24,084 nucleotides of DNA from Escherichia phage TL-2011a. Where the stretch lies: sequence record JQ011316. One strand, written 5' to 3'. Numbering within the stretch: position 1 is the first letter of the stretch; the number at the start of each line of letters is the position of its first letter. Positions 9,001 to 12,000 of this stretch are shown in pieces. A program made the position numbers.

Positions 9001-12000
9001 TTATACTCGATCTCTGTTAGGTTCAATGATGATTTCATGCCAGATTTTCTAATAGTGTAATATTTTCTTACATCACTGCTTGAAAATGCTTCTTGAATAA
9101 CAGCTTCTATATAAAGGCGGTCAATGCTAAGATTATCAGAGTTTGATTCAGTAACGCGTATGGCAGCTAATTCAACATTATATAAATTAAGAATGTCGAG
9201 GATGTTATTTCTCACATACTTTAATTTTTCTGGTGTGTCTAAGGTCGAAGGTATTTTAATAACATCAACACATTTGAGTGCAGACTCATTAGTGCAATAT
9301 ACAACAAAAGATGTAACTTTGGGCGCCGCTCTAACACCTAGTATTCTCATTTTTTATATCCTATTTTAGAATCAGGCCGCATCTCTGCGACCATCCATCA
9401 TCCAAACGTCTCTTCACTCACCCGAAGAAGCAGCAATCCGGGTCAGCACGCACAAGCTCAAGCGCATCAGTCAGCGAAAGTTCAGTACTGTACTGATGCC
9501 ATTTCATATCCTTCCGCATCCAATAGATTTTCCATCTATCCAGAGAACGTATGTACTTGATTCTTGCTGATGGCAGGATGTTTGTTTCACCTGGATTGCC
9601 CTGCCACACGGGGCGCTGTTCGCCGATATCTATCGTTTGGTCATTGATGCTATAAACAATATCCAGTTCATTGCGGATATGTTCAGGCGGCCTTATGCTT
9701 TCAATGAATTGGTGAACTTCTTTTTTTACTGCTTGATATTCAAGGTCATTGAACGCCATCTATCCTCCTTACCCAAACGTCTCTTCAGGCCACTGGTTAC
9801 CAGCTATGTGACGATGAAGTCACGAACTTTTCAGCCACTCCCTTGCCTCGATGTCATCCAGATGGCGAGATTGCTTCAGAATACCAGCTACATACTCCAC
9901 CTTTGCTACTTGATGATAAGGCAACGTTATAGGCCTGTGATCCTGGTTAATGCTTGTAAATTGGTATTCTCCATCTCTGTCATAGCCAAGAACCTTAATC
10001 ATGTTGTGTCCTTCAACGGTTCTGACAAACACCTCATCACCCGGGAATACTTTGGTGTTAGGCTCAATGAGTACATATTCTCCTGATTTTATTCTGGGCC
10101 ACATGCTGTCTCCTTTCACACGAAGACCAAAGGCATCTGGATCATCGCTATAAATTTTGAGCCACCCATCGCGCTCTTCGGTCATCTCGATGGCACCATC
10201 AACACCAAGAATTGCCTCACCAACCACGCGCACTAACCCTTTTTTTAATTTGCCAACAAATGAAAGAGTATCTTCATCATTCGCTCCATTTAACGAAGTG
10301 CCGTGCTGAAGCCAAACAACATCAACGTTTAGAAATTTCGCAAGCGCATTCATTTTTTCCTGACGCGGTAAAGACTCAGCATTAAACCATTTGCTAACGC
10401 CTTTGGACGAAAGAGAAAGGGCACGGGCTATAGCCATTCCCCTACCATGTTCATCAAGACCAGCTTCTTTACAGGCTTGCGCTAGCCGCTGGGCGAATTC
10501 TTTGCGCACTTTTTCATTCTGAACCATGAGTACGATACTAAAGCACTTGCAAAAACTTTCAGTTCAACCATAATACGTACTGAAAGTACGAAAAAGGATA
10601 TTCCTATGCAAAATCTTGATGAGCCGATTAAAGGTGTCGGCATCCCTGAAGTTGCGAAGGCTTGTGGAGTTAGCGAAAGGGCTGTCTATAAGTGGCTCAA
10701 AAACGGCTTCCTCCCTAAGACTGAGTTTTTTGGGAAAACTAAATACGCATCAAAAATCGAAGAGATTTCTGGTGGCAAATATCAAGCAAGCGAAATGCTT
10801 GAAATAAGCAAAAAGAACCTTCTGGCTGCATAAGTAACACCGCTATTTTCACAATGGACATTCGTCCTACGTCGCTGACAAAGCGAGTCCCAATATATCT
10901 GACCAACTAAGGCCATATGCGTTTCCACGCATACCTTTCAACTAGCTATTCACTATTGGAAATCTTAAGAAATGGAACAAACAAGTTACAGCAAACTATC
11001 ACAGCGAGAAATTGATCGCGCTGAAACTGATTTACTCATCAACCTGTCAACGCTTACCCAGCGCGGTCTGGCAAAGATGATTGGCTGTCATGAATCGAAG
11101 ATAAGCAGAACGGACTGGAGATTTATTGCTTCGGTCTTGTGTGCTTTCGGAATGGCATCAGACATCAGTCCGATTAGCAGGGCTTTTAAGTATGCGCTTG
11201 ATGGACTCACCAATAAAAAACGCCCGGCGGCAACCGAGCGTTCTGAACAAATACAAATGGAATTTTAACAACATCCAGCGAGGTAATTATATGCGAAACA
11301 AAGGCTTTAATCCACCTGATACACACAAAGAAGCTAAGCGTTTGCGCTTCCTTCGTTCCATTGATGAAAGAACTCAAATCTCTTTTGTGAAAGTTGCCAG
11401 AACTGAGCTTCTGAAGGCTGAGGCGAGGGCGTTGCTCCCGTCTCTACCAAAAGAGGAGGGATATACGTTCATTCCAAACGCATTTCTGGAAAAGCTGCTC
11501 AAAGAAGACATATCCGTAAGTCAGTTTAACGATGTTCTTAAGGTCTTTCGTCAAGGCAGGTAGTTATGAGCAATACAGCAAAAATCTACGATTTCAGCGC
11601 CGCACACGAGCGCAGGAGCAACAGGATGGAGAACCAGAAAACTGGTTACATTCCGTTGTACCGGAGCATTCTGAAACAGTCATGGGCGAAAGATGTTTAT
11701 CTTCGCACCCTGTGGGAAAACCTTCTCCTGAATGCCACCAGAAAGCCATACAAAGCGAATTTCAAAGGTCATGAATGGCATCTGCAACCCGGTCAACTGG
11801 TTGTGACAGCAGCTGATTTAGGTCTTCAGTTATGCGACAGGCATGGCAAGCCAGCAAGCCGCGATCAGGTTGAGCGGATGCTTCAGGTTTTTGTGAAAGA
11901 GGGGATGATCACCATTGATGGAGAGAAGCAAAAAGGTCGTGTGATTACCATCACAAATTACCATGAATATGCTCAAAAAATGGACGATTCACCCGCACAT

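Follow-up and report, generated by a model that had tools for sequence, protein, structure and literature searches.

Downstream of the cI repressor gene of Escherichia phage TL-2011a (sequence record JQ011316; the stretch of 24,084 bp that we analysed is referred to here as the window), the DUF3024 gene of a 933W-type Shiga toxin (Stx) prophage is enclosed by two perfect copies of a 15-bp direct repeat. We consider it likely that both copies derive from the 3' end of a lambda-type cI gene (codons P-E-E-T-F-G) and that they mark successive recombination joints in an accessory slot behind the repressor. The 15-mer CCAAACGTCTCTTCA (plus strand) occurs exactly twice in the whole window, at 9402-9416 (copy 1) and 9773-9787 (copy 2), with a copy-to-copy spacing of 371 bp, and a search allowing up to two mismatches retrieved no third copy in the window (0.06 expected). 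These exact matches confirm the initial annotation, which had described a perfect 15-bp repeat bracketing the DUF3024 gene. All genes of the region lie on the minus strand, on which the 15-mer reads TGAAGAGACGTTTGG. Copy 2 falls in the interval from the cI stop (9820-9822) to the Shine-Dalgarno sequence of the DUF3024 gene (AAGGAGG, 9764-9770), both located by direct reading of the sequence, while copy 1 lies 1 nt past the stop codon of that gene (9418-9759).

The nature of the repeat became apparent from lambda itself. The lambda cI gene (L007) ends with CAG TGG CCT GAA GAG ACG TTT GGC TGA, i.e., Q-W-P-E-E-T-F-G-stop, and the 15-mer is identical to its last 15 nt ahead of the third base of the final Gly codon and the stop. 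Since lambda cI ends in those same bases, we identify the 15-mer as the tail of lambda cI. Around copy 2 the similarity extends further: together with the upstream bases CAGTGGCC, the 15-mer forms a stretch of 23 nt, CAGTGGCCTGAAGAGACGTTTGG, in common with lambda cI, and the whole segment at 9772-9796 on the minus strand (25 nt, composed of CCAGTGGCC, the 15-mer and a G) would encode ..Q-W-P-E-E-T-F-G. Copy 2 sits 32 nt behind the stop of the 933W-type cI, whose own C-terminus (..EWLKSS) is unrelated to the lambda-type end; given this location past the stop of an unrelated gene, it represents the 3' end of a lambda-type cI preserved as an untranslated fossil. In L005, L008, L015 and L055 the same bases form the in-frame coding end of a lambda-type cI, and in L005 and L008 a lambda-type cI of 237 amino acids is directly followed by DUF3024. 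Moreover, at least eight repressor types with unrelated C-termini carry their stop codon 11-43 nt upstream of a relic 15-mer. The initial annotation, one reading of which was a junction scar, was thus right in placing a junction at a short shared sequence, but it missed that this sequence consists of the terminal codons of a lambda-type cI.

The fossil behind the 933W-type cI does not seem to be the only one. Immediately upstream of it, the bases at 9797-9808 (minus strand, CATAGCTGGTAA) resemble the end of a third repressor type (..H-S-W-stop) and are a probable relic of it: in L079 and L042, a 235-amino-acid repressor ends ..RVFWSSHSW-stop, with its stop 12 nt before the 15-mer. The spacer between cI and rexA of lambda (L007) contains GGCAAGGTGTTCTGGTCGGCGCATAGCTGATAA; the spacer reads ..GKVFWSAHS-stop and thus carries the corresponding ..HS-stop relic. 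Judging from these similarities, two nested relics probably lie behind the 933W-type cI, one of the ..HSW-stop type (as in L079) followed by one of the ..PEETFG type, and earlier repressor alleles may have left their 3' ends, one behind another, in the spacers downstream of repressor genes.

Comparison with related phages revealed both empty and filled versions of the joint. We compared the window by BLAST with 5,426 Escherichia coli genomes and extended the comparison to 50,697 phage records as well as to IMG/VR and metagenome contigs. In the E. coli genomes, alignments broke off at the repeats, with breakpoints at window positions 9771, 9792, 9394, 9411 and 9796. In L001 and L124 the order is cI, 15-mer and a downstream gene (geneX), whereas L055, L111 and L116 carry cI, 15-mer, DUF3024, a second 15-mer and the same geneX. 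Likewise, in L076, L077 and L115 the cI 15-mer is followed directly by GTGATAGGAAG..., the sequence which in L004 follows the 15-mer behind DUF3024, and in L052 a 933W-type cI with the relic 15-mer runs directly into a terminator hairpin. Depending on the phage, the 371-bp unit, comprising one 15-mer, the Shine-Dalgarno sequence and DUF3024, does or does not intervene between the 15-mer and its downstream neighbour, and this holds for at least three different neighbours. Hence, the scar alternative of the initial annotation was essentially right, in that the cassette is present in some relatives and absent in others; the joint is a heavily reassorted mosaic one.

The left and right flanks of the 15-mer reassort freely among phages. 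A scan of IMG/VR for the exact 15-mer returned at least 120 loci; as the scan was conditioned on an exact match, counts drawn from it are biased and conservation is inflated. Among these matches listed, about 108 lie in lambdoid immunity regions, and the remainder, which look like chance matches, were excluded by inspection of their flanks. When the flanks were clustered without gaps at 85% identity over 100 nt, the 121 occurrences among the matches listed comprised at least 19 left-flank types and about 38 right-flank types in 57 combinations. These included 12 four-combination rectangles, in which two left and two right types were found in all four pairings. We also examined 80 IMG/VR loci with a lambda-immunity cI that had been picked by cI protein similarity and not by the 15-mer. 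The 15-mer was exact in 71 of the 80, and eight carried a one-base synonymous variant (CCA for CCT). Behind near-identical lambda cI genes, this sample contained 19-22 unrelated downstream types, each starting at the base after the 15-mer; the 371-bp cassette was present in six of the 80 loci, followed by the RuvC-like gene and stk in four and by geneX in two. The joint coincides with a gene boundary, either at the cI end or 11-43 nt past the stop of other repressors, with a stop codon and the next gene immediately after it. The 15-mer is widespread in lambdoid phages, where it is confined to this single position.

On the far side of the cassette, copy 1 and its right flank (9379-9416, 38 nt) match the junction between the cI end and the next gene in L001. 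The adjoining hairpin at 9375-9392 on the minus strand (GGTCGCAGAGATGCGGCC; a 7-bp stem with a GAGA loop) corresponds to the terminator stem of the cI operon with its T-run lost: the same hairpin, followed by T6-7, comes immediately behind cI in L110, L043 and L030, and behind a second DUF3024 allele in L013. In the window the stem is followed by TGATTCTAAAAT (TGATTC...) and not by a T-run, so that it lacks the signature of a Rho-independent terminator, and it was not called in a terminator scan of the window. The next terminator-like site on the minus strand, a hairpin with a T-run at 7662-7683 detected by a consensus scan, lies beyond the protein kinase gene stk (7849-8895) and is likely to be the true end of the cI operon. 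The missing T-run at 9375-9392 and the position of the next terminator fit reports that stk is expressed from the PRM promoter together with cI (PMC3564112; PMC3430580), and that cI, DUF3024, the RuvC-like gene and stk change expression together in a transcriptome table (PMC10789677). The hairpin also overlaps a predicted mini open reading frame (ORF) of nine codons (ATGATGGATGGTCGCAGAGATGCGGCCTGA, 9372-9401, minus strand), whose first 24 nt are the start of a 162-amino-acid gene behind cI in L001 (2500-2523), L124 and L055; that gene has no match in Pfam or PADLOC. The eight shared codons (MMDGRRDA) coincide in the window with the bases of the stop and of the left arm of the hairpin, and this overlap indicates another mosaic joint inside the terminator hairpin.

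A cI-to-kinase junction carrying one repeat copy and no DUF3024 gene, which the initial annotation had proposed to look for in related prophages, did not turn up; empty sites were found only with other downstream neighbours. We searched the E. coli genomes and the phage records with a chimeric query of 97 nt and a second query of 65 nt, and IMG/VR and the metagenome contigs with exact patterns, and in none of these four collections was a single-copy junction of cI, 15-mer, hairpin and RuvC-like gene/stk present. Every full-length match consisted of two pieces spanning 468 bp or started at the first base of the 15-mer, and the three partial matches that we inspected (H100, H101 and the L005 type) all contained DUF3024. 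In these data the intact kinase-module junction thus always occurs with DUF3024. The nearest case is L002 (3051-3131), where a different, XRE-type repressor is followed by the RuvC-like gene and stk without DUF3024. Here the tail is degenerate (TGATTAGACATTTGG, three mismatches in 15), and the variant of the hairpin pairs through one compensatory change, which suggests that what is conserved ahead of the RuvC-like gene is the stem rather than the 15-mer.

The sequence identity, the coding or relic status, the presence or absence of the cassette and the reassortment at the joint are direct observations; for the history behind them, we infer the following. The ancestor would have carried a cI gene with a lambda-type tail, its stop and a terminator. 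DUF3024 would then have arrived, the last 15 nt of cI being duplicated in the process; an unequal crossover, the insertion of a circle bearing one copy or an illegitimate joint formed on the right within the cI tail could each account for this. Subsequently, the AT-rich RuvC-like/stk module may have been joined at the 3' edge of the hairpin, with removal of the T-run, so that PRM transcription would read through to stk. Finally, the lambda-type cI body would have been replaced by a 933W-type cI, with the tail left behind. With a copy of the tail on each side, a single crossover in the 15-23 nt of identity with a collinear lambdoid genome could move the cassette to new neighbours, and we propose that phage recombinases (Red or Rad52-like) or RecA may use this short homology to swap cargo when lambdoid phages reside in the same cell. 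Modules have been suggested to join at short conserved sequences flanking them, and Red-type recombinases are known to use short or diverged homology (PMC2327257; PMC3945230).

Several points weigh against this explanation. The founding event is not reconstructable, as an illegitimate joint, an unequal crossover and a Campbell-type insertion of a circle give the same product, and the order of the steps is itself a matter of inference. A homology of 15 bp is short for efficient homologous recombination. The counts from the exact-match IMG/VR scan are biased by that ascertainment, and selection could be the reason why the relic is kept exact behind many unrelated repressors. Moreover, neither the approximately 195 E. 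coli genomes with this junction nor the other collections contained a deletion derivative with the order cI, 15-mer, hairpin, RuvC-like gene and stk.

DUF3024 is not the only cargo associated with the tail. The genes found after the 15-mer include RexA, BstA (1e-123), a BstA-like protein, kinases, PDC-S43, PDC-M04A-like and PDC-M63A-like families and many unknowns. We also observed an 87-bp micro-cassette that encodes a hydrophobic peptide of 23 amino acids (MREYLIVGVVTLLSVVAIVLMVA) and is bracketed by the 15-mer or by variants with one to three mismatches at six loci with different repressors (L066, 7551-7652; L114, 3990-4217; L109, L123, L128 and L130). In L114, two small membrane-like ORFs and three tail copies precede the terminator. 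The stretch duplicated around the micro-cassette measures at least 21 nt, as compared to 15-16 nt for DUF3024, and its duplication was therefore independent of that of DUF3024.

The recurrence of the tail raises the question of whether the 15-mer is functional on its own. One possibility, which we regard as unlikely, is that the 15-mer, together with the GTGGCC and NTGATG on either side, is under selection as a functional element, providing a translation-initiation or coupling context for the next gene or an mRNA processing site, so that each inserted cassette must bring a copy for the next gene to stay expressed. It would account for the many right-flank types that start with GTGATG or ATGATG in a stop/start overlap (TGATG), for the exact relic behind at least eight unrelated repressor types, and for the independent small cassettes (87 bp, with the 23-codon hydrophobic ORF) that are each followed by a copy, three in a row in L114. 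However, the two downstream genes in the window each have a Shine-Dalgarno sequence of their own, located 13 nt and about 50 nt past the copies, and the exact-match sampling of IMG/VR inflates the apparent conservation. The second DUF3024 allele (L013, L014, L031, L113 and L126; 78% nucleotide identity over the cassette, about 380 nt after the 15-mer) is frameshifted and thus apparently a pseudogene; behind it stand a degenerate tail copy and an intact terminator with hairpin and T-run. Its upstream copy is kept (coding in L013, a relic in L031), whereas the downstream copy matches at only 10 of 15 positions while the neighbouring hairpin is conserved at 17 of 18. Other copies vary as well: the upstream copy in L004, L009, L111, L116 and L117 is AGAAGAAACGTTTGG, which matches at 13 of 15 positions and is synonymous for P-E-E-T-F-G, and the L006-type relic behind a 933W-type cI, a class common in the E. 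coli listing, has suffered a 10-nt deletion. An Rfam scan of 7500-11000 at E≤1 gave no match, and the region of copy 2 folded no better than shuffled sequences (z = +0.33). The decay of the downstream copy beside a conserved hairpin, the synonymous variant, the deleted relic and the lack of an Rfam match speak against a repeated RNA processing element, the other alternative put forward in the initial annotation. At the same time, the two observations which that annotation would have counted against a scar were each made in part, since the diverged, frameshifted allele has no exact downstream repeat, and the 15-mer, though common in lambdoids, keeps to a single position. We conclude that the 15-mers probably have no role of their own in the window today, at least as non-coding sequence.

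A related view is that the cI tail (about 21-29 nt, GTGGCC-TGAAGAGACGTTTGG-NTGATG) is a maintained docking sequence for plug-and-play promoterless anti-phage cassettes under PRM; on balance, this appears rather improbable. If true, the copy brought by each cassette would keep both the coupled start of the next gene and the competence to recombine with any lambdoid phage, and the immunity region would hold an integrase-free, homology-driven analogue of an integron.

Far less credible is the idea that the repeats arose as a target-site duplication, or that they form the core of a site-specific (att-like or integron-like) recombination system by which cassettes of single genes are delivered to the cI end. 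The arrangement does recall such systems, as identical direct repeats of the target stand on either side of the cassette, empty sites have one copy, and one site takes different cassettes (DUF3024 and the 87-bp micro-ORF). Nevertheless, the cassette encodes only the 113-amino-acid DUF3024 protein and neither a transposase nor an integrase, and a search of 9340-9840 found no terminal inverted repeats on it; the 15-mer is not palindromic and lies outside any inverted repeat. The duplicated length is not constant either (15-16 nt for DUF3024 versus at least 21 nt for the micro-ORF), a synonymous variant matching at 13 of 15 positions may take the place of the upstream copy, and joints occur at other nearby points as well, e.g., inside the hairpin. 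A transposon or miniature inverted-repeat transposable element was also considered and dropped, as the inverted-repeat search of 9340-9840 detected no arms at the ends of the cassette.

That the pair is a coincidence without common origin can practically be dismissed: although any perfect 15-mer pair in 24 kb is not rare (naive expectation 0.27) and the window holds another one (4496/6882), a pair within 500 bp is rare (expectation 0.003-0.011), both copies extend into independent homology with the lambda-type cI ends of other phages, and the pair recurs at the 371-bp spacing in many relatives. It is these comparative data, and not the statistics of the 15-mer alone, that refute chance and establish the repeat as real.

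The joint can be placed among the short conserved junction sequences already known from lambdoid mosaics. Like the boundary sequences described for these phages (Clark et al.), it is a short sequence at a gene boundary, common to phages that differ on one or both sides, with flanks that reassort. Unlike those, its origin is identifiable as the last codons of a lambda-type cI, and it is duplicated in tandem order around an inserted gene and persists as a non-coding fossil behind unrelated repressors. A non-coding stretch matching the end of a different allele is also typical of the gene 3'-end remnants of allelic replacement; here, however, two nested remnants (..HSW-stop, then ..PEETFG) probably lie behind the 933W-type cI, and lambda has ..HS-stop behind its own cI. 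The slot itself corresponds to the cargo position in the PRM operon of lambda (cI-rexA-rexB), with hex in 434, stk in 933W and BstA behind P22-like repressors, where mostly anti-phage cargo accompanies the repressor; the present finding concerns the joint and not the cargo. Degnan et al. are said to have found in 2007 that rexAB is often replaced by other genes in wild phages of lambda immunity. As an extra gene between genes that are adjacent in relatives (L001 versus L055; L076 and L077 versus L004), the DUF3024 cassette resembles a moron (Juhala et al., 2000; Hendrix). It differs from morons in that no promoter of its own was found and it lacks a functional terminator in the window (the diverged allele has one), in that its composition equals that of the neighbouring cI (guanine-cytosine [GC] content 0.45 vs. 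0.45), and in that it is flanked by a duplicated piece of the upstream gene. Finally, single promoterless genes lined up after one fixed promoter, with a copy of the same short sequence behind each (three in L114), resemble integron cassettes or Campbell-type insertions. The resemblance is an analogy only, as there is no attC-like palindrome and no integrase in the cassette, and the repeat is a gene fragment of varying duplicated length. We found no prior description of this joint in the searchable literature, which omits most subscription papers, including the primary paper on the 933W immunity region.

These results resolve, down to single bases, one of the most active mosaic joints of lambdoid and Stx prophages, which is the entry to the repressor-linked slot for defence genes. 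The joint sequence is a piece of the repressor gene, which a swap of repressors leaves behind as a fossil and the addition of cargo duplicates, and this explains the frequent annotation of DUF3024 beside cI in Stx phages. The 15-23-mer can serve as a landmark to find and catalogue PRM-linked cargo in prophages (RexAB, BstA, Stk, DUF3024/PDC-S43 and unknowns), and the joint is a defined natural substrate on which one could test how little homology phage recombinases get by with in nature. The scope of the finding is modest: it is a clear example of known phage mosaicism, involves no new mechanism and leaves current ideas on mosaicism unchanged.

The region as a whole shares 99.9% identity with the immunity regions of phage 933W and many Stx phages. 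The 933W-type cI (9820-10527, minus strand) encodes 235 amino acids ending in ..EWLKSS-stop, with Peptidase_S24 and HTH_3 domains, and is itself 99.9% identical to that of 933W. The DUF3024 protein of 113 amino acids matches Pfam family PF11225 over the full length of the profile (E=2e-31; 108.9 bits against a cut-off of 24.9) and, by PADLOC, the candidate single-gene defence family PDC-S43 (E=5e-42 over residues 1-113), which makes a defence function conceivable. On its biology, only the transcriptome table mentioned above (PMC10789677) turned up in the searchable library. A promoter scan returned as many sites as expected from shuffled sequences, none of which serves DUF3024, and the minus strand at 9760-9820 has no promoter-like site. 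Beyond copy 1, the RuvC-like ORF (8889-9350, minus strand, 153 amino acids) is the first gene of the AT-rich downstream module; it is annotated as RuvC-like or RuvC family in public records, although no Pfam match was obtained. It is followed on the same strand by stk (Pkinase, 2e-46; PD-T4-6- and mad6-like in PADLOC), a known abortive-infection cargo of 933W that is reported to exclude HK97 (PMC3564112; PMC3430580). Accessory genes cotranscribed with the repressor in the lysogen are mostly anti-phage genes (PMC3564112). The GC content of the RuvC-like/stk module is 0.35, as compared to 0.45 for cI and DUF3024 and 0.46 for the whole window; hence, the module (7849-9350) looks compositionally foreign.

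Three further repeats were noticed elsewhere in the window. A second perfect 15-bp direct repeat, AGTTTCTGGTTGCTT, is located at 4496-4510 and 6882-6896; it is non-tandem, with a spacing of 2,386 bp, and may be due to chance or mark another junction. A direct repeat of 44 nt with 93% identity (3238-3281 and 3864-3907, spacing 626 bp) resembles, on the minus strand, the ribosome-binding site and start of two paralogous genes. Finally, six repeat copies with a 12-nt phasing (CGCACATGAAGCCGCACA...) at 11994-12121, within the ORF of a replication protein (11566-12513), look like origin iterons inside an O-like gene, comparable to those of lambda.

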